64,000 nt of DNA from an uncultured Armatimonadia bacterium (GTDB taxonomy: Bacteria; Armatimonadota; Zipacnadia; CAVVLO01): NCBI GenBank assembly GCA_963749155.1, contig CAVVLO010000002.1, forward strand, positions 160,001-224,000, in the 5' to 3' direction. Below, one piece after another: positions 17,140-27,576 of this stretch. The notes below the pieces were generated by a model that saw only the letters and a program-made list of their open reading frames with translations, did no database searches and was not told the DNA's origin. Position numbers and translations under genes: made by a program. Numbering within the stretch: the first letter of the stretch is position 1; every line of letters begins with the position of its first letter.

Positions 17140-18558
17140 CTAGCCTGCGGGTTGCTGCTCCTTGTCACTGTGCTTGACTGGCAACCAAACGCTGAAAGTT
17201 GAGCCTTCCCCTTCTTTGCTGGATAAGGCCAGGCGACCTCCATGATGCTCCACCAGTTTTTTTACAAGGGGCAATCCAAGACCGGTGCCTTTCTTCTTTC
17301 TGGCGCTTTCGGTACGGAAATAGGGTTCGAAGACTTTCGCCATATCGCTTTCGCCAATCCCAAATCCCTGGTCCTCGACCTCTACACGCGCCTCGTCATC
17401 CTCCAGGGCAAGTCGGACCGTCACGGTCGTATTGCTGGGCGAATACTTGATAGCATTAGTGACAAGGTTCGTGATAACGAGTTGGATACGAGGCTCATCG
17501 GCTTCGATATGAAGCCCCTTCGCCTCTGCAGCCACTTCGTAGACAAGCTCATGTTCGTTGGCATAAAGGCCGTGACGTTCTACGAAATGGTCCAGTAAAG
17601 CGTCCAGGTCGAAAGCCGTTATGTTCAGTCTAAGAGACTTGCCCGATTCGATCTGGGACAGGTCCAGGAACCCATTAATCATCTGGGTCAGGCGGTCGAC
17701 CTCGTCCATCATCATCTGAAGGAACTGGGCCTGACGCGCGCCTTCGAGCCGCTGGTCCAAAATGCTGGAAGCTACAAACTTGAGGGTCGTAAGGGGGCTC
17801 TTCAGCTCATGCGACACGAAGGAAACAGCCTCACTCTTCATTCGTGAAAGCCGCTCCAGCTCCGTGACATCCGTGAAGACAACAACTCGTCCAAGCCAGG
17901 AGCCATTGCTTCCCCCGATATCCTCAACGCCTGCCTGGACGAAGGTCTCGCCAGTCTGGAGAACCCGGTTTTCCGGCAAGTTGCCTGTAGCAATTACTGT
18001 GAGTAGCTCCTTGTCTTTGATCGATTCTTGTGCAACAGGACGACCAGCCTTCGGTGGGTCAATGCCAAGCAAGCGACAGGCAAAATCGTTGGCTATTACC
18101 ATTTGGTTCGCAGAGTTGGTAACCACAAGCCCATCGGGCATCAGGTCTACGATTGCCTCGAGCTGGGTCTCCAGCAATCTAGCCCTGGCAGCGATCCGGG
18201 CGCGCTCGGCTTCCAGCTCGATGCGTTGCTTTTCCATACTGCTCTTGGCGGCCTGGTAAGCGGCAGTCGCCTGGTTGACGAGACTACGCACCTCGGCATC
18301 AGACGTCAAAGTGAAGACTGCGCGCCCCCCTTCCCCATGACGTTCCAGCAAGCCAGCGGCCACCAGTTCACTGGCTTCGAGGTCAAGCTGGGCAGGCTCG
18401 GCGCCTATCCAGATAGCCAAGGATTCGGCGGTGTCTATTGTGCCCGGATTAGCATCCAGAAAAGCTACCAACTCGAGTTTGACCAGCGAGTCGAGATGCT
18501 CTTCCAGGAATTGGGCTATCTCGCTTGCTTTTTCACTTTTGCGTGATTTGGCTGTCAT
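17140..18558 (-). CDS. Cytoplasmic histidine kinase: N-terminal winged-helix-like domain, coiled coil, PAS, HisKA, HATPase
   Basis: VSHELKSPLT H-box, NLVTNAIKYS, DQGFGI, GTGLGL; PAS MPDGLVVTN; ATG at 18558 directly after the KaiC stop. Confidence 0.88.
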   Translation of the reverse strand: MTAKSRKSEKASEIAQFLEEHLDSLVKLELVAFLDANPGTIDTAESLAIWIGAEPAQLDLEASELVAAGLLERHGEGGRAVFTLTSDAEVRSLVNQATAAYQAAKSSMEKQRIELEAERARIAARARLLETQLEAIVDLMPDGLVVTNSANQMVIANDFACRLLGIDPPKAGRPVAQESIKDKELLTVIATGNLPENRVLQTGETFVQAGVEDIGGSNGSWLGRVVVFTDVTELERLSRMKSEAVSFVSHELKSPLTTLKFVASSILDQRLEGARQAQFLQMMMDEVDRLTQMINGFLDLSQIESGKSLRLNITAFDLDALLDHFVERHGLYANEHELVYEVAAEAKGLHIEADEPRIQLVITNLVTNAIKYSPSNTTVTVRLALEDDEARVEVEDQGFGIGESDMAKVFEPYFRTESARKKKGTGLGLPLVKKLVEHHGGRLALSSKEGEGSTFSVWLPVKHSDKEQQPAG

Positions 18559-18559
18559 A

Positions 18560-19936
18560 TCAGGCAGGGAGTATCCTGACTCCTTCATTACTGATCTCAA
18601 ACTGCCGAACGCGCATATCCGCGGCACTGGTGCGCATCTTGGGTATGGAAAGCTGTCGCTTTATCACACCTTGCTCCTCCACCAGACGCATTTCGAGGAT
18701 AGTATCTATCGCCATTCCCGCTAGCTCATAGCCGCGGTCTTCCCCACCGAAATTTTCATGGGTCAGTATCGAGGTAATGCCTTGCTGCTCGAAAGTGCTC
18801 ACCAGGCTGTAAATCCAGTTGCGAAGCTCGGTGGGAGAGGCAGTGTTGGCCTCGATTACATTGAGTCCGTCCACTACTACTCGTTTGATTTCAAGTTCGC
18901 GTACAGAATCCTGGATCTCCCAGAAGAGCCGGTTCACATTGAGATCAGCCGAGGGAGCCGCCAAAACGCGGAATTTCTCACTTTTGATAAAGTCTCGCAG
19001 ATAACCGAATCCCTCAGCCATCTGGAATATCTTGTATAACCGCTCATCCAGGGAGACAAACAGGCAAGACTCTTCCTGCTGGACGCCCTCATGCAGAAAT
19101 TGCAAGCCCAGACTGCTCTTGCCTGCACCAGGGGGGCCACTCACGAGGCCACAGAAACCTTGTATTAGGCCCCCGCTCAGCATCTCGTCCAGCCCAGCGC
19201 AGCCTGTCGAGACGCGCTCCAGCGGATTGCCGATGATCTCTTCGCGAGGGGGTTGGGGATTGGGATAGACAACAAGCCCCGAATCGGAGAAATCAAGGGG
19301 ATGTTTGCCCGAAATGTGCTCCTGTCCACGCGTCTTTACAATCTCGACGCACCGCTGCCGCCTCATCCGTTTGGGACTCGGATCATAACTCACCACGAGT
19401 ACGGCATCGGCGGTATAAGCCTCAAAAGAGATTGGCGAATCGTGTTCAAGTGAGAGTTCCTTGGTAAGGAAAGCTGTGAGATTGCGCTTTTTGAAGCCAT
19501 TGAGGAAGCTGTTCATTATCTCGCGCAATCTTACTGTCTCGAGTTCCAGCCGTTCAAAATGAGTGACGCTATCCACCAGGATGCGTCGAGCGCCAATCTC
19601 ATCCATCACGACATCCAGCATACCGCCTGGTTCCTGGATTTGTTCGTTGAAGACTTCAGGTGATGTACTGATGACCCTGAGTTTATCTTCGTCCTCAAGC
19701 GCCCTCAGATCCCAGCCGAACTGGGCCGCATCACGATAAAGCTGTTCAGGAAACTGCTCGAAAGTCACGATGATGCCAGGTTCGTCCAGCTCGGAGGCGC
19801 CGTGATAGACAAATTGTAGACCGAGGGTTGTCTTGCCGGTGCCTGGCGCGCCTTCTATCAAGAGGCTATGCCCCTCGATTAGCCCACCTAAAAATAGTTC
19901 GTCCAGGCCTTTGATGCCCAGGGGTAGCTTGCCCAT
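18560..19936 (-). CDS. KaiC-like double-domain RecA-superfamily ATPase (#4)
   Basis: GIKGLDELFLGG, GAPGTGKT, KTRG; second domain TGCAGLDEMLSGG, GPPGAGKS, KMRT; AGGAG RBS before ATG 19936. Confidence 0.9.
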   Translation of the reverse strand: MGKLPLGIKGLDELFLGGLIEGHSLLIEGAPGTGKTTLGLQFVYHGASELDEPGIIVTFEQFPEQLYRDAAQFGWDLRALEDEDKLRVISTSPEVFNEQIQEPGGMLDVVMDEIGARRILVDSVTHFERLELETVRLREIMNSFLNGFKKRNLTAFLTKELSLEHDSPISFEAYTADAVLVVSYDPSPKRMRRQRCVEIVKTRGQEHISGKHPLDFSDSGLVVYPNPQPPREEIIGNPLERVSTGCAGLDEMLSGGLIQGFCGLVSGPPGAGKSSLGLQFLHEGVQQEESCLFVSLDERLYKIFQMAEGFGYLRDFIKSEKFRVLAAPSADLNVNRLFWEIQDSVRELEIKRVVVDGLNVIEANTASPTELRNWIYSLVSTFEQQGITSILTHENFGGEDRGYELAGMAIDTILEMRLVEEQGVIKRQLSIPKMRTSAADMRVRQFEISNEGVRILPA

Positions 19937-19949
19937 GCAGTTTCTTCTC

Positions 19950-20282
19950 CTATTTCCTGCCGTTGAACTCCAACAACTTGGCCAAACGCAGCCTGCCGTC
20001 AGAATCCAGGAGCTGGGCGAGAAACTCTCCAACCAGCTCTCGGGCCTCGCGGTCGCGTGTATAACGGAAAACTGGATTATCCGAAGCCGAACACTGCAGC
20101 AACCCGGTAGAGGCCATCTGCTCCAGCACGGATTCCAGCAACTCGGGATTGCGTCCTATCCAGTGCGCCAAGCCCCGGCTGGTATCCATAGCCGAAGGAT
20201 TGTGATGGAAGTATGCAAGCACTTCCACCGCAATCACCGAACTACCAATCTGCCCAACATACTGAGCGAGTTGTTCTTTCAT
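19950..20282 (-). CDS. Small winged-helix-like protein (NPxxxDT..LA.WIG family)
   Basis: FHHNPSAMDTSRGLAHWIG...GLL...VFRYTRD; similar to 20340-20630 and to the kinase N-terminus. Confidence 0.75.
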   Translation of the reverse strand: MKEQLAQYVGQIGSSVIAVEVLAYFHHNPSAMDTSRGLAHWIGRNPELLESVLEQMASTGLLQCSASDNPVFRYTRDREARELVGEFLAQLLDSDGRLRLAKLLEFNGRK

Positions 20283-20339
20283 AAGACATACTTCCTGCAT
20301 TGGTCCTGCTCCATCCAGGCTGGCCTGCGACCTTCCAAC

Positions 20340-20630
20340 CTAGCGCGCTGCCAACACCGTCGAGACTAGCTGGCGCAGCGTTTTATCCTTGGTATAGCTA
20401 TAAATCGGAGGCCTGGTAACACCGGCCGTTGCTCTTATTTGTACGAGGCCCTTCTCTGCCAGAAGCTCCAGTTCATCGCGCACTGACTGCTCGCTTTGGC
20501 CTAGTCTTACAGCGATGCCCCGAGCATAATCCATCGTGAAGGGATTACGCTCAAAGAAATTCAGGACGCCCACACACCCCTGGGCGTCATCCTGCTCAAG
20601 CCAGTTTCTGAGTGTCTCCTCGGTCATCAA
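20340..20630 (-). CDS. Small winged-helix-like protein (paralog)
   Basis: FFERNPFTMDYARGIAVRLG...GLV...IYSYTKD; start overlaps the upstream stop (TTGATGA). Confidence 0.75.
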   Translation of the reverse strand: MMTEETLRNWLEQDDAQGCVGVLNFFERNPFTMDYARGIAVRLGQSEQSVRDELELLAEKGLVQIRATAGVTRPPIYSYTKDKTLRQLVSTVLAAR

Positions 20631-21904
20631 GACTCCCGTTCACCGCCGGCCTCGTGGCGAGGCAGACGCGCAACCAGTGCGTCCAGAGCATCAGCGTGCT
20701 GGGCTTCCAAAGGGTACACGATGAAGGTGCATTCTTCATCGCCGACTGCCTGGCAAGCCATCTCTTCACAATTGCAGGGGGCGCCGGTAAGCAGTTCTGC
20801 CGTACGCGACAAAAATCCCCGAGCGAAATCATCTGCCTGACGTCCAGCAGGAGTCATGGCCTGGAAAAGTCCGGTGCCAGCAAAACGCAGTTCTCCAGAG
20901 GCCTCCTGAGACTCCGCAAGCCTGAGTTCGCCAAGGCCCTGGAGCTGGAAGGCCTTCAGTCGCTCGCCCAGGCTGCCACCGAGTTTCTCAGCCAGTCGCC
21001 CGCCCGTATTATACATCGCGAGGGTCGACTCTCTCATCTGGTCGCCAAGGTCTTTCAGGATCTCGCCCACGAGCTGCCTGGAGACGGAACTTGCCTTGAG
21101 TTGGGCCTGAGCGCGTTCGAGTCGCCTGGCCATCTCATTTAGCGTGATAGCGAGCAAGCCAAGTTCATCTTTGGTATGGACAGTTGCGCGACGTGAAAGT
21201 TTCCCCGAAGCCAGTTGCTCGGCCACCGTAGACAGCTCCATAATGCGAGCCGAGATGCCTTTTGAGACCCAGATGCCCGCCCCAAGCGCAAGGAACACTG
21301 TCAAGATTAGCGCTGTAAGCACCAGAGAGTTGGCCCTGCCTGTAGCCTGGTCTATCTGCTCACGCGAGAGCTTCCTTGCCTGGGCTACTAACTGCTGAGC
21401 CTCAAGAGCCGCGCTGCGGAAGGCGGCTGCGCGCCGGCTGTTGGCGCCACTAAGCTCTGTGGCTCGAGTAGCCACAGAGTGCGCCTGATCGAGTATGCCG
21501 AGTAGTGCTGCAACGAAATCATCAACCTGGGGAGTTGCGGTTCCCACTCCCACATCCAGTGGAGAGATATTACTAAGCGAAAAGCCTGCGCGCTGGGCTT
21601 CCTTTTGCAGTTCGTCAGACTTCGAACTCCACTCGCGAGCCAGTTCGGCCAGCTCCTGAGGAGGAGCCTCCTGAGGAGCTTCAGCAATCAGGGCTGTCCG
21701 TTCACTTAGTCCACCCAGCTCTGCCAGCAACTCGAAAAGGCTTGACTGACTTTGGATACGACTCAGCGAACCCGAAATAAACCACAGCAAGACACCAAAG
21801 ACGCCACAGACCAGCAGAGGCACCGCAATTATCTTGGTGCCTACACCGAACCGCACCGTCATCACCTGGCTTGCCAGACGACTCAGTGGATCATGCCGGG
21901 CCAT
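20627..21904 (-). CDS. Membrane sensor: 2 TM, extracytoplasmic helical domain, HAMP, C-terminal V4R domain
   Basis: Two TM helices; HAMP LASGKLS..DELGLLAITLNEMARRL; V4R FARGFL..EEMACQAVGDEECTF. Confidence 0.8.
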   Translation of the reverse strand: MARHDPLSRLASQVMTVRFGVGTKIIAVPLLVCGVFGVLLWFISGSLSRIQSQSSLFELLAELGGLSERTALIAEAPQEAPPQELAELAREWSSKSDELQKEAQRAGFSLSNISPLDVGVGTATPQVDDFVAALLGILDQAHSVATRATELSGANSRRAAAFRSAALEAQQLVAQARKLSREQIDQATGRANSLVLTALILTVFLALGAGIWVSKGISARIMELSTVAEQLASGKLSRRATVHTKDELGLLAITLNEMARRLERAQAQLKASSVSRQLVGEILKDLGDQMRESTLAMYNTGGRLAEKLGGSLGERLKAFQLQGLGELRLAESQEASGELRFAGTGLFQAMTPAGRQADDFARGFLSRTAELLTGAPCNCEEMACQAVGDEECTFIVYPLEAQHADALDALVARLPRHEAGGERES

Positions 21905-21914
21905 CGTTTCCGGC

Positions 21915-22652
21915 TCACTCCCTGTAGTAGTCGGCGTTGACGACAAGCCCCTGCTGGGGTTTCAGGGCAAAGGGGAAGGCCCGGGGGTCGAAAGGCTGGC
22001 CACGCACCTTGGAAACTCGCAGATTGCGTTTGGGCACGCCGCCTCTTTCTTCCGCCACAAAGAGTTCTGCGATCACGTCATAAGCATTGGTCAGGCCATA
22101 AGTCTCCACAGGCCCCATTGCCGAGGAGAGATACAAGTCTAATAGCACTACGTTATCTTCGCGCAGCAACCTGTTCTTGTCGTAGATAAGGTTCACAAAG
22201 TCTCGCGGCGAGTAGTTGACCATAACTGATGCCAGGGAATCTATGACGACTCGACAGGGCCTGCCTGCTTTATCAACCGCCGATTTGATCACGTAGAGCA
22301 GTTCCTGCTGGTCGGCCTTGTCCGAGACGAAATAGCCCCCAGAGCGCTGCTGTGAGAAAGCATCCAGCACCAGCAGCTTGCCCTCACGCTCATAAGGATC
22401 TGTACCGAAACCGAATTTTTTAAGGGCGCGCCGTATCCTGTCCGGCGACTCGTCGCAAGCAACAAAGACAGCCGACTCTCTGGCCCGCAAGCCCTCGACG
22501 ATGAATTGATAACCGAAGGTAGACTTGCCGGCTCCGCTGTCCCCAGTCACTTGCCAGGCGGTCCCGAAGGGAATCGGCTCGCTAAGTATGCCCTCAAGCG
22601 GTGTGAAACGTACTCCCTCTTCGCCCTGTGGCGTGGCTCGCTCCTCGCTCAC
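21915..22652 (-). CDS. Single-domain KaiC/RAD55-like ATPase (#3)
   Basis: GDSGAGKST, FVACDESP, VVIDSL, VSKVRG. Confidence 0.85.
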   Translation of the reverse strand: MSEERATPQGEEGVRFTPLEGILSEPIPFGTAWQVTGDSGAGKSTFGYQFIVEGLRARESAVFVACDESPDRIRRALKKFGFGTDPYEREGKLLVLDAFSQQRSGGYFVSDKADQQELLYVIKSAVDKAGRPCRVVIDSLASVMVNYSPRDFVNLIYDKNRLLREDNVVLLDLYLSSAMGPVETYGLTNAYDVIAELFVAEERGGVPKRNLRVSKVRGQPFDPRAFPFALKPQQGLVVNADYYRE

Positions 22653-24062
22653 TTAGCTCATCTCCTCGCCACCGGGCACGTAGTACACCCGGATGCCTTC
22701 CTGGGTGATGGCCATCCTGTGCTCGCCCATCACGTGGCGCGTAGCGCGCAGTTTATAAACCTCAAGGCTGCGCCGACGTTTGGAATCCTGCTGCTGCACT
22801 CTCAGCACCACGACCCCGTCTACCAGTGATTCCTCAGTCTTAAAATTGCTAAGGTCGAGGGCGCCAGAGGTCGTTGGTGACACCAGGACTGATGTTGACT
22901 TGCAGGACTTTAACAGGTCGACAAGCTGAGCCAGCTTCTCGGCTACCAGCCCATCGTCCTCCGAGATCGAGTGCAGCATCGAGGCAACCGAATCCACTGC
23001 CACTCGCTTTGCGCCAGTGGTCTCAAGCAGCTCGCGCACTTCAAGCAGATGCTTGTCGACGTTCAGGTCTACAATGGGAAAAGACCGGAGCACCAGCTTG
23101 CCTTCCTCTACTAGCTGTCTCACAGGCCAGCCAAAGCTCTCGCCGAGTTCGACAAGTTGCCCTTCGGCCTCTTCATAGAGCAGCATCAAACCGACTTCGC
23201 CAAATTCCAGAGCGCCTCTTGTCAGATATTGCAGAGAGAGAATCGTCTTGCCAGTGCCAGCGGCTCCCGACAGCAGAGTTACAGCCCCCTGGGGGAAGCC
23301 TCCCCCAAGCAGTCTGTCTATCTCCGACAGGCCAAAAGCGCATCGGACGTCACTCTTAAGCACGGCTGGCTGGCCACTGGTCAGTTTTCGCGGGAAGACC
23401 TGCAGCCCGTCAGGATCTATCTCATACGAATGCCGGCCTGGCATAAAACCCGAACCGCGCATCTTGTGGACCGACAACCAGCGTCCCCCGCCTCGGGTCT
23501 GCTCGTCATTCTCGAGGTACAGCACCCCGTCAGCGATGGCAAATTCCGGCTCGGATTCGAGTTGATCAGCGGTATATTCACCAATCAGGAAGGTGGTGCA
23601 TTGCCAGCCGGCCATCTTCACCGCCAGGTCGTAGACGAACTTCCGGAACTCGCTAACCGAGGGCGCCAAGTCGTGGATAGCCTTGAAGCTATCGATTACC
23701 ACAACGGCAGGCCGGATCTGCTTTACCATCTCGATAAGCCGAGATTGGGCATCTCCGAGCCCTTCCTGGCGCACAATAGCGCCAATATCATTGAAAAATA
23801 CGCTTGTACCGACTTTATCCTGGTCGAAGAAAGTGAAGCCTTGCTGATAGCGCAGCACCTTGACCGAGGGCTCGGACAAGGTAGTGACATACATCGCTTT
23901 GCGCTCTTCGCTGGCGTTGTGGAACATCATCTCTTGAGCCAGGACAGTCTTCCCGGTACCGGGGCTTCCAGCTATCACGTTAACCGAATAGGCAGGAAAA
24001 CCTCCGCTGAGGATACGATCCAGATTCGGGATGCCTGTGGGCAGTCGCTCCAACTCGCACAC
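22653..24062 (-). CDS. KaiC-like double-domain ATPase (#2)
   Basis: TGIPNLDRILSGG, GSPGTGKT, TTLSEP, KMRG; GAAGTGKT, YEE, KLRA. Start may be TTG at 24053. Confidence 0.92.
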   Translation of the reverse strand: MCELERLPTGIPNLDRILSGGFPAYSVNVIAGSPGTGKTVLAQEMMFHNASEERKAMYVTTLSEPSVKVLRYQQGFTFFDQDKVGTSVFFNDIGAIVRQEGLGDAQSRLIEMVKQIRPAVVVIDSFKAIHDLAPSVSEFRKFVYDLAVKMAGWQCTTFLIGEYTADQLESEPEFAIADGVLYLENDEQTRGGGRWLSVHKMRGSGFMPGRHSYEIDPDGLQVFPRKLTSGQPAVLKSDVRCAFGLSEIDRLLGGGFPQGAVTLLSGAAGTGKTILSLQYLTRGALEFGEVGLMLLYEEAEGQLVELGESFGWPVRQLVEEGKLVLRSFPIVDLNVDKHLLEVRELLETTGAKRVAVDSVASMLHSISEDDGLVAEKLAQLVDLLKSCKSTSVLVSPTTSGALDLSNFKTEESLVDGVVVLRVQQQDSKRRRSLEVYKLRATRHVMGEHRMAITQEGIRVYYVPGGEEMS

Positions 24063-24108: not shown

Positions 24109-24478
24109 TCAGTCTCCGTTGAGCTGATGCTCGGCCTGTTCCACGTCGGGTCTAAGATGCTTGACCACGACCTGACCGGTCAGAGTGGAGACATTCGAAA
24201 ATCAGCCGGGTGAATAGAGTCTTAAAAGCCTCTTTAAGTCGCTCGGGCGGCACCTCATCGAAGACGCTCACGTCTTCGGGAAGACGCACCCCTTCGTCAG
24301 TGACCTCGATGTATTCCAGGAAATGGTACTCCCCCGCCGCATCGAAAATGGCTGCCTCAATCATCGTCTGCAGGGCCACTGGCCCGAGCATACTGACTGC
24401 TTTGCGCCATATCGAGCGGAGCACCTCGGAATACACCTCGAGGATCTGCCGCTGGCTTAGTTCAGTCTGGCCGTTCAC
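24109..24478 (-). CDS. Small helical KaiC-associated protein; one-base frameshift at the A-run 24198-24201
   Basis: Paralog of 25919-26260. Removing one base gives ..LISNVSTLTGQVVVKHL..NGD* matching the paralog's ARLTGNALARRI. Confidence 0.7.
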
Positions 24479-24490
24479 GGCGTCTACCCC

Positions 24491-25891
24491 TCACTCCCAC
24501 TGGATTTCGACAGGGTCAGCCAGTACAAGCCCCTGGTTGCTAATACAGAGCTCTCTAGCCTGTCGAGAGTGATCGCTAGCATGCATCTTGAGTATGAGCA
24601 ACGCTTTCTTCATCGCGCCCTGGTCATAGGTGTACTGAAGCATCAGCACGTTGTCCACCAGGGTGAAAAGCCCTTGTTCGGAAAGCGAACGCGCTCCAAA
24701 CAACTCGGGTACATTGTCCACCAACAAGGTCGTCACGCCCTGCCTTGCCAGGCGACGAAGCAAGGAGTGGAAGAAACCTTGCGCATTGATACTCGCATCG
24801 AAGGCTTGCCGCAGCTCGCTTACGCTATCGAGTACGAGTCTTTTGGTGCCAGTCCGTTGCACCTTCGTCAGCAGGTCGGTAGTAAAACGTTCTGGCTCCA
24901 GGCTGCGCGGAGAGAGAGGCCAAATCTCGACCTGATTCCCCTTCAGCGATACCCCTGCGCCTGCCGAAGTGCCGCGAAGCTCAGCTTCCGACTGACGGAA
25001 ACTCACTAACAATCCTGGGTCACTAGCAGCTTGTCCGGCTGCAAGGAAGCTCATCGCGACAAGGGACTTCCCCACGCCGCTCGGGCCGATGACAAGGGTG
25101 CTGGTGCCGCGCGGGATGCCTCCCCCACAAGCCTCATCAAGCCCCCTTACCTGGAGGCCAACTCGATCAGCTACGGATTCGACCGAATTCTCACAGATAA
25201 AATGCTCGCTTTCCAGATTCGGGAACAGCCGCAAGCCATCAGTGGTGATTTCGAAATAATGCTTGCCAATCTCGAAATCACTACCGCGCATCTTGACGAC
25301 TTCAAGAGAACGCCGCCGCCGCGCGCCATTGCCTTCAAAAGTCAGCTCGAGTACGCCATCGGCGATGGCGAATATCGACTCGGTGCGCATCTCTTCTTCT
25401 GTGTATTCGCCAATCAGGAAAGTAGTGCATTCCCAGGCCGACAGTTTCAGCGCCAAATCAAAACCAAACTTGCGGACTTCCTTGTTGTCGGTCGCAAGAT
25501 CGTTAATGGCTTTGAAAGAGTCAATACAAACGAGCCCTGGCTGCGTCTTGCGCACCTGATGCAGAATCTGCTGGAGCGTCTCGTTTAGACCTTTCTCACG
25601 GATCAGATGGGCCAGGTCCAGATAGACAACACTATCATTGAAACGGTCGATGTTGAAGTAGGAAAAACGTGACTGATAGCGCAACAGCTTGAGCGCTGGC
25701 TCGGACAAAGTGGTCATGTAGATGGCCTTGAAATTGACCGAAGCATTGTAAAACAGACTTTGATGAACCAGGGTAGTTTTTCCGCCGCCAGGCCTTCCGC
25801 TGATTATGTTGACCGAATACAGCGGAAACCCACCGTGCAGGATTTTGTCCAACCCCGCATTGCCCGTAGCCAGCTTGGGTAGCCCAGGTAT
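24491..25891 (-). CDS. KaiC-like double-domain ATPase (#1) with degenerate second domain
   Basis: LATGNAGLDKILHGG, GRPGGGKT, TTLSEP, KMRG; second domain GPSGVGKS, SFRQ, KMHA. Start uncertain (ATA 25891 or TTG 25852). Confidence 0.88.
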   Translation of the reverse strand: MPGLPKLATGNAGLDKILHGGFPLYSVNIISGRPGGGKTTLVHQSLFYNASVNFKAIYMTTLSEPALKLLRYQSRFSYFNIDRFNDSVVYLDLAHLIREKGLNETLQQILHQVRKTQPGLVCIDSFKAINDLATDNKEVRKFGFDLALKLSAWECTTFLIGEYTEEEMRTESIFAIADGVLELTFEGNGARRRRSLEVVKMRGSDFEIGKHYFEITTDGLRLFPNLESEHFICENSVESVADRVGLQVRGLDEACGGGIPRGTSTLVIGPSGVGKSLVAMSFLAAGQAASDPGLLVSFRQSEAELRGTSAGAGVSLKGNQVEIWPLSPRSLEPERFTTDLLTKVQRTGTKRLVLDSVSELRQAFDASINAQGFFHSLLRRLARQGVTTLLVDNVPELFGARSLSEQGLFTLVDNVLMLQYTYDQGAMKKALLILKMHASDHSRQARELCISNQGLVLADPVEIQWE

Positions 25892-25918: not shown

Positions 25919-26260
25919 TTAATCTGGCCCGCCAGGCACGTTGTCCATAATACGCCTGGCCAACGCGTTGCCTGTAAGGCGAGCAATAATGGCGAAGATA
26001 TTACCTATGACTTCGGTCAGGGCTTGCCTGACTTCAACCGGGTCTAACTCGGCACTTCGGTTTTTCAACTCGCCAAGGTCGAGTCCGGTAGGCTTGGCCT
26101 GCACCAGTTCTGCCAAAGGATATTCTTCGGCGGTGCGGTAAAGGGCGCTCGAGCAAATCTCCTCGACTGCTGCTGTGCCAAGAGTCGGGAGAATCTTGTC
26201 CCAGATCGCGCCCAAAATATCTTCGTAAATTTCGACGGTCTGCTGGACGATATCCACCAT
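25919..26260 (-). CDS. Small helical KaiC-associated protein, first gene of the operon
   Basis: GAGGT RBS; IWDKILPTLG..ALYRTAEEYP..LTG pattern shared with 24109-24478. Confidence 0.75.
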   Translation of the reverse strand: MVDIVQQTVEIYEDILGAIWDKILPTLGTAAVEEICSSALYRTAEEYPLAELVQAKPTGLDLGELKNRSAELDPVEVRQALTEVIGNIFAIIARLTGNALARRIMDNVPGGPD

Positions 26261-26391: not shown

Positions 26392-27576
26392 TTAGAACAG
26401 GCGCCACTTGTGTTCGAGGAATCCTAGCTGGATATTCTTCCAGTCGGCCAGGACTTCCTGCACGATGGCATAGATTGTCTCTTCGAGGTCTTGGGTTGGC
26501 ACCTCCGCTTCGACTTCCACGTTGACTTCGTTGGGTTCGTTGATAGGATGGCCGATGCGGCTTAGCATATAGCACTGAGCTGCTGTCACTGGCTCTATAT
26601 CTTCGACTCTTTCGGCGATAAGTTGTGCCATTACCGAATAGATTTTCCCGACATGGCTTACGGGATTTTTTCCGCAGGCGGCTTCAAGAGTCATTGGCCT
26701 GTAAGGCGTGATAAGCCCATTTGGCCTGTTGCCACGCCCAACCTGGCCATCGTCGCCGGCCTCGGCGCTGGTGCCTGTGATAGTAAGATAAGCCTGTTGG
26801 GGATCGTCAGCCGTGTTGACCGACACCTTGCAGGCGCGATGAGTAAGTCCCTGTGCCAAATCCAGTATCGTCTGCTCAATAAGAGCCTTGGCCTCATCAT
26901 AAGCTGCTCTATTTGGCAACTCGGAGGCGACCATTGCACAAGCGACAGTAAGGTCGAGCTCGTCGCCCTGGCGAAGGCCCATTATCTTTATATCAGTGCC
27001 GATCTCGGGATGTTCCTGCTTGAACTCGAAGGAGTTGAGCACATGCTCTCCATCGAGCACGACTTTCTCAAGGTCGCTAAGGGGCCAGTAACCTACACCG
27101 AAGGAGGTATCATTGGCGCGTGGAACCGCAAGCGCCTGCGAAGCATCATAATTGTGCTGCAAGTCGAGAGAACCGGCCCGGATACGGGCATCTACAACCA
27201 ACCTGTCGCTGCCAACAAGCCGAGGCAGGTCGGTGGCAATCCAGTCAAGGGTGGTGGCCTGAGCAAATTCGAGCATATTAAGCTGGCCATCGATTGGTGT
27301 AGCGCGACCAACGAGGATAATCTCGATAGGGTCAAGCAGCTTCCCACCGCCAAATACTGGCTCAGTTCTGCCACCTACCAGCACGCACTTGTCCACGTTG
27401 TGATGGAGGATACGTCCACATGCCTCCAGATAACGCTTGCTCAGCGCAATACTGAGTTCTTCAGCAGCCCTGTCCGCAATAGAGTCAGGATGGCCCATAC
27501 CTTTACGCTCGACTATCTCGACAGGCATAAAGTTGGCGTTGGGGCGAGTGGGATTTGAGACTTTAATCCGTGGCAT
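26392..27576 (-). CDS. mat: Archaeal-type S-adenosylmethionine synthetase
   Basis: EIVERKGMGHPD, HHNVDK, ANDTSFGVG, GTSAEAGDDGQVGRGNR, EAACGKNPVSHVGKIY. Confidence 0.93.
   Translation of the reverse strand: MPRIKVSNPTRPNANFMPVEIVERKGMGHPDSIADRAAEELSIALSKRYLEACGRILHHNVDKCVLVGGRTEPVFGGGKLLDPIEIILVGRATPIDGQLNMLEFAQATTLDWIATDLPRLVGSDRLVVDARIRAGSLDLQHNYDASQALAVPRANDTSFGVGYWPLSDLEKVVLDGEHVLNSFEFKQEHPEIGTDIKIMGLRQGDELDLTVACAMVASELPNRAAYDEAKALIEQTILDLAQGLTHRACKVSVNTADDPQQAYLTITGTSAEAGDDGQVGRGNRPNGLITPYRPMTLEAACGKNPVSHVGKIYSVMAQLIAERVEDIEPVTAAQCYMLSRIGHPINEPNEVNVEVEAEVPTQDLEETIYAIVQEVLADWKNIQLGFLEHKWRLF

Follow-up and report, generated by a model that had tools for sequence, protein, structure and literature searches.

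Homologues of KaiC are widespread outside cyanobacteria, and the route by which they act on outputs is open. SasA homologues found outside cyanobacteria are described, in the accessible part of one study, as being without a KaiB-like domain, so that another output route must exist (PMC5520375). In the clock itself, KaiB and the thioredoxin-like domain of the histidine kinase SasA both dock on the B-loop of KaiC, according to the available text of a preprint (bioRxiv 10.1101/2020.06.17.158394). Pseudomonas KaiC-like proteins, which occur without KaiB, bind a neighbouring kinase through its N-terminal region, as two-hybrid and co-immunoprecipitation results given in the available portion of another preprint indicate (bioRxiv 10.1101/2022.01.26.477890). 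Here we analyse a stretch of 64,000 nucleotides (hereafter the window) from an uncultured Armatimonadia bacterium (contig CAVVLO010000002.1, positions 160,001 to 224,000), in which four KaiC-like genes, KaiC#1 to KaiC#4, lie in one string with three copies of a small winged-helix domain: two stand-alone proteins, A and B, and the N-terminus of a histidine kinase. We consider it probable, with reservations set out below, that this domain is a docking adaptor for the CI ring of KaiC#4-type ATPases, which occurs both free and fused to output modules, and not a DNA-binding winged helix.

The three copies lie on the minus strand and flank KaiC#4 (18560..19936), as a preliminary description of this DNA had stated, which had also read them as one and the same domain. 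In the direction of transcription, B (96 amino acids, 20340..20630) is followed by A (116 amino acids, 19950..20300), KaiC#4, and the kinase (17140..18558), whose N-terminal NPxxxD domain (18256..18558) is the third copy and matches the profile with E 2.7e-34. BLASTP confirms that they are paralogues: the kinase N-terminus aligns with A over 87 residues (32% identity, E 2e-14) and with B over 74 (27% identity, E 1e-7), and A aligns with B over 75 (37% identity, E 8e-16). The columns invariant in the three-way alignment (N, P, D, G, G-L, T, D, R and L-V) cover the NPxxxD, GLL and T.D motifs. Spacing between these genes is minimal, since A ends 13 nucleotides ahead of the ATG of KaiC#4 (that of MGKLPLG) and the kinase ATG at 18558 comes 1 nucleotide after the KaiC#4 stop codon (18560-18562). 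This ATG is the likely start of the kinase, rather than the start of the longest open reading frame (ORF) at 18627; homologous kinases begin 2-20 amino acids ahead of the winged-helix domain. The start of A is probably the ATG at 20282; a direct homologue search with A gave four close relatives, and its close homologues (109 amino acids) begin at the MKEQ position. A profile built from the copies retrieves a fourth one in the genome (contig C1, 135910-136242, E 1.7e-11), directly upstream of another KaiC-like gene. The latter, a second KaiC#4-type gene (contig C1, 134481-135885), reads as two same-strand ORFs of 328 and 135 amino acids about 10 nucleotides apart, a split that a frameshift, a fault in the assembly or a pseudogene might explain.

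These copies are members of a real, sizeable and unnamed family. When 1.84 billion representatives were searched exhaustively with the profile, 744 clusters matched at E<=1e-3 and 103 did so at E<=1e-10, mostly with lengths of 90-160 amino acids; the nearest clusters are labelled "hypothetical" or "putative MarR" in the protein atlas, and the commonest phyla are Chloroflexota, Actinomycetota and Acidobacteriota. The winged-helix domain of A, B, the kinase and 62 scanned relatives stays below the cut-off of every Pfam and NCBIfam model: B matches MarR_2 with 20.7 bits, where 27 would be needed, neither A nor the kinase N-terminus matches MarR or ArsR, and weak matches among the 62 members are to HVO_A0114 in 17 and to MarR_2 in 14 (the latter at E<=0.01). 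The AlphaFold2 model of A, based on 62 relatives (predicted local distance difference test score, pLDDT, 86.5; predicted template modelling score, pTM, 0.75), has the topology H0-H1-b1-H2-H3-b2-b3-H4-H5, which is a winged helix. Its best matches among solved structures are ArsR/SmtB and MarR repressors (CzrA with Z 10.9 and a root-mean-square deviation of 3.0 over 93 aligned residues), and Foldseek retrieves MarR-family chains with E about 1e-3 and a template modelling (TM) score of about 0.5. The domain thus has the winged helix-turn-helix fold of the MarR/ArsR regulators, falls short of their curated profile cut-offs, and differs from the thioredoxin-like fold of KaiB, just as the preliminary description had supposed from the letters. 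KaiB itself (PF07689) has no match at E<=0.01 in this genome, for which marker genes indicate 100% completeness, and is absent from the Pfam matches of A, B and the kinase.

Helix 3, the "recognition" helix of this fold, is net negative in 49 of the 62 members (mean -2.0), with Glu as the commonest residue at positions 53, 56, 58, 60, 61 and 64, which argues against DNA contact by this helix; the isoelectric point (pI) is below 6 in 40 members. The most conserved residues (N34, P35, D39, G49, R50, G66 and Y78) all lie outside helix 3. A literature search of limited reach returned no paper that describes this winged-helix domain as a KaiC partner.

Complex prediction places A on the CI domain of KaiC#4. 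The preliminary description had proposed modelling each copy with each of KaiC#1-4; the pair that was modelled is A (62-row alignment) with KaiC#4 (458 amino acids, 32-row alignment). It reached an interaction prediction score from aligned errors (ipSAE) of 0.66 (0.65-0.68 between runs) against 0.08 for the best of three controls, the runs share at least 95% of contacts, and the pLDDT of the partner is at least 74. Of 157 solved complexes, 116 attain the mark that we used for this score, as do 2 of 215 mismatched pairs, a benchmark to be taken as rough only, own alignments having been used here. A solved complex of KaiB with CI exists; the partner here differs in fold, and unrelated partners scored 0.00. 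On A the predicted interface comprises residues 33-40 (the NPxxxD motif), 42-43 and 46-47, together with 69, 71, 77, 79 and 82, which include wing residues, and on KaiC#4 residues 62-64, 81, 87-95, 98-99 and 106-110, all in CI. In a HMMER alignment to the KaiC of S. elongatus (7dye_A), residue q of KaiC#4 corresponds to q+17 up to q=101, after which there is a 3-residue deletion. With this offset, residues 87-99 of KaiC#4 correspond to 104-116 of S. elongatus, and residues 91-101 to 108-118, at the B-loop. The accessible text of a further study (PMC12084410) puts this loop at 116-123, or more widely at A112-D126 in the numbering of an ancestral protein with an offset of 4. Docking of A on CI at the segment equivalent to the B-loop is therefore a prediction that the model supports well.

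KaiC#4 belongs to the KaiC family (two PF06745 matches, E 8.8e-95; E 8.9e-64 against solved KaiC chains) and has two RecA-like KaiC domains with the Walker A motifs GAPGTGKT and GPPGAGKS. It scores below both circadian equivalogs (NF006799, 268.7 bits with a cut-off of 408; TIGR02655, 198.1 with a cut-off of 546). In a survey of 301 genomes of the phylum, the winged-helix domain was matched at E<=1e-5 in 111 and PF06745 in 174; PF06745 is present in 86 of the 89 genomes with a strong domain match (E<=1e-10) and in 88 of the 212 others. The KaiCs encoded downstream of family members have a common CI segment (FEEFPQQ...KL+VI.TSP.VFQQ), whereas KaiC#1, KaiC#2 and a relative at another locus (L015) have a wholly different one. 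By this comparison, the partnered subfamily is represented in the genome by KaiC#4 and the contig C1 KaiC only. Scores of a profile of the KaiC#4 subfamily are two-humped, with 81 of the 301 genomes reaching E<=1e-100; the domain is present in 80 of these 81, and 211 genomes have neither. Nine genomes carry the domain without a KaiC#4-type ATPase at this cut, namely two with truncated matches (G001 and G278), one with a single-domain KaiC beside the copy (G148), and six others. In 14 sampled genomes whose only family members are kinase fusions, a KaiC#4-type gene is found elsewhere, preceded by a gene for a secreted protein that is not a family member. The co-occurrence with KaiC-like genes anticipated in the preliminary description is thus borne out, but of the four KaiCs that it had listed for modelling, only KaiC#4 is of the partnered subfamily, and KaiC#1-3 are not.

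Linkage of the genes is tight for some architectures of the family. For every one of the 132 listed matches with E<=1e-10, which come from 88 genomes besides the window's own, we surveyed both flanks to a distance of at most 8 kb (another 22 matches that are unlisted, and 14 listed rows of weaker score, lie outside this set, and all counts of loci given here and below are among the matches listed), and scored a locus when a KaiC-like gene followed at most 200 bp downstream on the same strand. This was the case for 30 of 54 free full-length copies, for all 25 MerR-fused copies, and for 3 of 6 short partial copies. Taken together, free and MerR-fused copies show tight, translationally coupled pairing with KaiC in 55 of 79 loci. 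For 6 of the 14 weaker rows, too, the coordinates put a KaiC match 38-117 bp downstream. Both free and fused members occur in 35 of the 88 genomes, free members only in 21, and fused members only in 32; in 21 genomes the only members are kinase fusions. Free copies that stand away from KaiC are mostly found in a conserved housekeeping string made up of a DUF4132/DUF7737 protein, pyrF, the copy and a DUF6259 protein (L083, L088, L090, L092, L107, L123 and L130). The genomes of these orphan copies have, at a different place, a MerR-fused copy adjoining their single KaiC. As a separate observation, many KaiC#4-type genes in the class of the window's bacterium encode about 880-950 amino acids, with two KaiC domains and a C-terminal periplasmic-type solute-binding domain (SBP_bac_1/8); those at L057 (L057:5308-7941), L050 and L075 each follow a free winged-helix copy.

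The architectures in which the domain occurs go beyond those of a stand-alone regulator. Among 16 long matches that were scanned, nine have the domain at the N-terminus of PAS-HisKA-HATPase kinases, and one is a HisKA-HATPase kinase whose N-terminus has only a MarR_2 match; a GAF-PAS adenylate or guanylate cyclase and a protein with BON domains account for one match each, two proteins consist of many repeats, which in one of them are generic HTH repeats, and the last two belong to no family. The survey of the phylum adds a class of about 220 amino acids in which an N-terminal MerR_1 is joined to a C-terminal core of the winged-helix domain, so that these fusions bring a DNA-binding domain of their own. 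The kinase of the window is a two-component histidine kinase by its Pfam matches (HisKA 1.1e-14, HATPase_c 3.1e-31, PAS weak), and its AlphaFold2 model (pLDDT 85.1) shows the order H-H-(b)-H-H-b-b, then a helix of 52 residues that leads into PAS, followed by DHp and CA. From the fusion architectures and this model, the domain sits where input or adaptor modules sit. N34, D39 (or E), T40 and Y78 are kept in the kinase, MerR and cyclase fusions, including kinase-fused copies that lie away from KaiC. Upstream of the kinase fusions there is a protein of about 280 amino acids in 20 of 40 loci (L021, L027, L051, L054 and L060 among them), with HNH_repeat, a homing-endonuclease-associated family, in the five that were scanned; the remaining neighbours in these 40 loci are housekeeping genes, with no recurring response regulator or KaiC.

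These data lead us to propose the following scheme. The face of the domain formed by NPxxxD, beta-1, helix 2 and the wing would bind the KaiC segment equivalent to the B-loop, and the free small protein would be co-translated with its KaiC. Fusions to PAS-HisKA-HATPase kinases, GAF-PAS adenylate cyclases, MerR or BON would couple the state of the ATPase to an output. In the window, KaiC#4 would be the common target of A and B in free form and of the kinase N-terminus in fused form; its state would be passed to the kinase through the long helix into PAS-DHp, and free copies would sit at these KaiC#4 sites or modulate them. We infer from their common motif that A, B and the kinase might compete with each other; a docking of the kinase domain in the manner of A, and the nature of the output, are likewise conjectural parts of the scheme. 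More tentative still, and in our opinion rather doubtful, is the idea of an independently evolved KaiB/SasA-type circuit, in which free occupants and readers of the kinase, cyclase and MerR types would compete for the B-loop of a dedicated KaiC subfamily, such that the nucleotide state of a non-clock hexamer would switch between phosphorelay, cyclic-nucleotide and transcriptional outputs in Chloroflexota-like bacteria and other phyla. The winged-helix family provides in any case a concrete and testable candidate for the output route of KaiC, with a small docking domain, a signature motif, a defined partner subfamily and natural fusions. If the binding is true, it would also give a handle for annotating hundreds of proteins now called "hypothetical" or "MarR-like".

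A number of observations weigh against a docking adaptor. The binding of A to KaiC#4 is a prediction, made for monomers of this one pair, and the KaiC columns at the interface do not exceed CI as a whole in conservation (0.59 vs 0.62, with 68% of random sets as high), so that KaiC conservation gives no extra support for docking. The domain has the fold of the ArsR/MarR DNA-binding regulators, and 12 of the 62 members are basic (pI > 8). None of the 40 kinase fusions in other genomes has a KaiC gene near it, and one of the seven other long fusions has one downstream. Among the 54 free copies, 24 are orphans, for which no KaiC was seen over 8 kb or, on shorter contigs, as far as the sequence extends (one has no sequence downstream of it on its contig), and six genomes of one family (G027, G080, G122, G185, G219 and G227) have a free copy and no KaiC#4-type gene. 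The KaiCs that make up the subfamily profile had been selected for their gene neighbours, and the cut of E<=1e-100 was set after the score distribution had been seen; because the genomes are kin and the KaiCs of the profile were chosen in this way, the co-occurrence counts overstate the independence of the cases. KaiC#4 has Gln at what we take to be the second catalytic-glutamate position of CI. It also lacks the phosphosites S431/T432 (named as in the accessible part of bioRxiv 10.1101/2022.01.26.477890): G407 and M408 align with the S-T pair of solved KaiCs and, with the offset in numbering that we deduce, presumably correspond to these positions. A phosphorylation timer is thus not supported, and the timer-like behaviour entertained in the preliminary description is weakened by these residues, whereas a switch based on the ATPase state of KaiC#4 is possible. 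The same description had taken the domain for a KaiC-docking rather than a DNA-binding module, which gains from the prediction for A with KaiC#4 and from the acidic helix 3 and is held back by the predicted nature of the binding and by the basic members; the linkage to KaiC neighbours, on which it had made its reading depend, is seen for free and MerR-fused copies, but not for the kinase fusions of other genomes or for the orphans among the free copies.

Other explanations have to account for the same facts. The small proteins might be ordinary ArsR/MarR-like transcription factors that bind DNA and autoregulate the KaiC operon, in which case they would be tied to KaiC merely as regulators are to the genes they control, and the kinase N-terminus would be a degenerate or dimerising copy. 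Small regulators directly upstream of their target gene are a common arrangement, and the structural likeness to CzrA and to the MarR chains found by Foldseek, the weak MarR_2 and HVO_A0114 matches, and the basic members would all fit such a regulator. This would leave unexplained why helix 3 is Glu-rich and net negative in most members, why the best conserved residues lie elsewhere, and why the domain is fused to kinases, to cyclases and even to a MerR protein that has a DNA-binding domain already. The co-occurrence is moreover specific to one KaiC subfamily, also where the genes are not adjacent, and the predicted complex of A with KaiC#4 passed its controls, which together make a regulator unlikely in our view. 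The input position in several signalling architectures could instead point to a module for small-molecule or redox sensing and for dimerisation, whose co-occurrence with KaiC would follow from a common pathway or clade and not from docking. Its flanking helices do resemble the dimer interfaces of MarR and ArsR, and the kinase fusions and orphan free copies stand away from KaiC, but the conserved columns have no Cys, His or metal-site pattern, the pairing of free and MerR-fused copies with KaiC is tight in most loci, and the complex model employs the signature motif of the family; we regard a sensor of this kind as improbable.

That start and stop codons overlap or nearly abut those of the KaiC gene points to co-translation, and from this one might suppose that the free copies act as chaperones in the assembly or loading of the KaiC hexamer and not as competitors in signalling, with the fused copies merely tethering enzymes. 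The present data do not separate a chaperone from an adaptor, but kinase fusions are the only members in 21 genomes, and we give this last explanation very little credence. A docking adaptor for KaiC#4-type ATPases is, in spite of the points raised against it, the explanation that we retain.

The copies and KaiC#4 are part of a longer string of ten tightly packed genes, all on the minus strand and running from 26260 down to 17140, in the order 113-amino-acid protein, KaiC#1, 108-amino-acid protein, KaiC#2, KaiC#3, HAMP and V4R protein, B, A, KaiC#4 and kinase. KaiC#1 (24491..25852, PF06745 E 9.9e-63) and KaiC#2 (22653..24062, PF06745 E 6.6e-84) are double-domain KaiC-like proteins of one subfamily, other than that of KaiC#4 and with a different B-loop segment, and KaiC#3 (21915..22652, PF06745 E 1.2e-30) is a single-domain one. 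The 113-amino-acid (25919..26260) and 108-amino-acid (24152..24478) proteins precede KaiC#1 and KaiC#2, respectively; they have no Pfam or NCBIfam family and are paralogues of each other (BLASTP E 4e-11). The same layout is seen at L015, where an ORF of 120 amino acids stands ahead of a KaiC#2-type gene. On these sequences, the two proteins may represent a second small family of KaiC partners, unrelated to the winged-helix domain. In a sediment metagenome run we observed a strain variant with a 1-nucleotide deletion at 24203, in the 108-amino-acid ORF, and 66 substitutions within an 8.2-kb part of the cluster. The gene directly upstream of B encodes a membrane protein with HAMP (1.4e-10) and V4R (2.6e-09) domains (20627..21946). 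Two short contigs of one metatranscriptome library, which is of a type that can contain DNA, fall on this gene (20880-21056 and 21696-21902), and A, B, KaiC#4 and the kinase are not covered by a contig from any RNA library. Immediately upstream of the cluster lies a gene (26392-27576, minus strand) whose product begins MPRIKVSNPTRPNANFMPVEIVERKGMGHPDSIADR and is presumably, by eye, akin to archaeal-type S-adenosylmethionine synthetases.

The winged-helix family can be set against four described systems. It has the overall fold and size of the ArsR/SmtB and MarR repressors, but stays below their Pfam cut-offs, has an acidic recognition helix, is fused to signalling enzymes, and bears its signature on the face formed by the beta-sheet and helix 2. 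Makarova, Galperin and Koonin reportedly proposed in 2017 (mBio) that archaeal KaiC-like ATPases are hubs of signal transduction. The available text of PMC5847659 ties KaiC-like ATPases to diverse signalling modules outside circadian clocks, and the association of KaiC with varied signalling modules is what these hubs have in common with our locus, the difference being that the winged-helix family has been seen here in bacteria. With the Pseudomonas system the locus shares a non-cyanobacterial KaiC homologue, the lack of KaiB and the use of the N-terminal region of a kinase as contact; as far as the accessible description goes, by which alone the two are compared, the contact region there is a PAS domain (amino acids 1-138) and no free paralogue is reported.

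The closest parallel is that with KaiB and SasA. Each system has a free small protein with a homologue that forms the N-terminal domain of a histidine kinase, and in each, here by prediction, the two address a double-domain KaiC; the predicted contact of A lies on CI at the segment aligned with the B-loop. The kinase gene need not adjoin kaiC in either case; to our knowledge, sasA is not located at kaiABC. The two systems differ in that the domain is a winged helix here and thioredoxin-like there, in that KaiC#4 is without S431/T432 and has a B-loop shorter by 3 residues, and in that cyclases, MerR and BON occur as further fusion partners of the winged-helix domain, for which no fold-switching and no KaiA or RpaA partner is known. 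If the predicted binding is true, the logic of free and kinase-fused paralogues meeting on the B-loop of CI would have arisen twice, from two unrelated folds.

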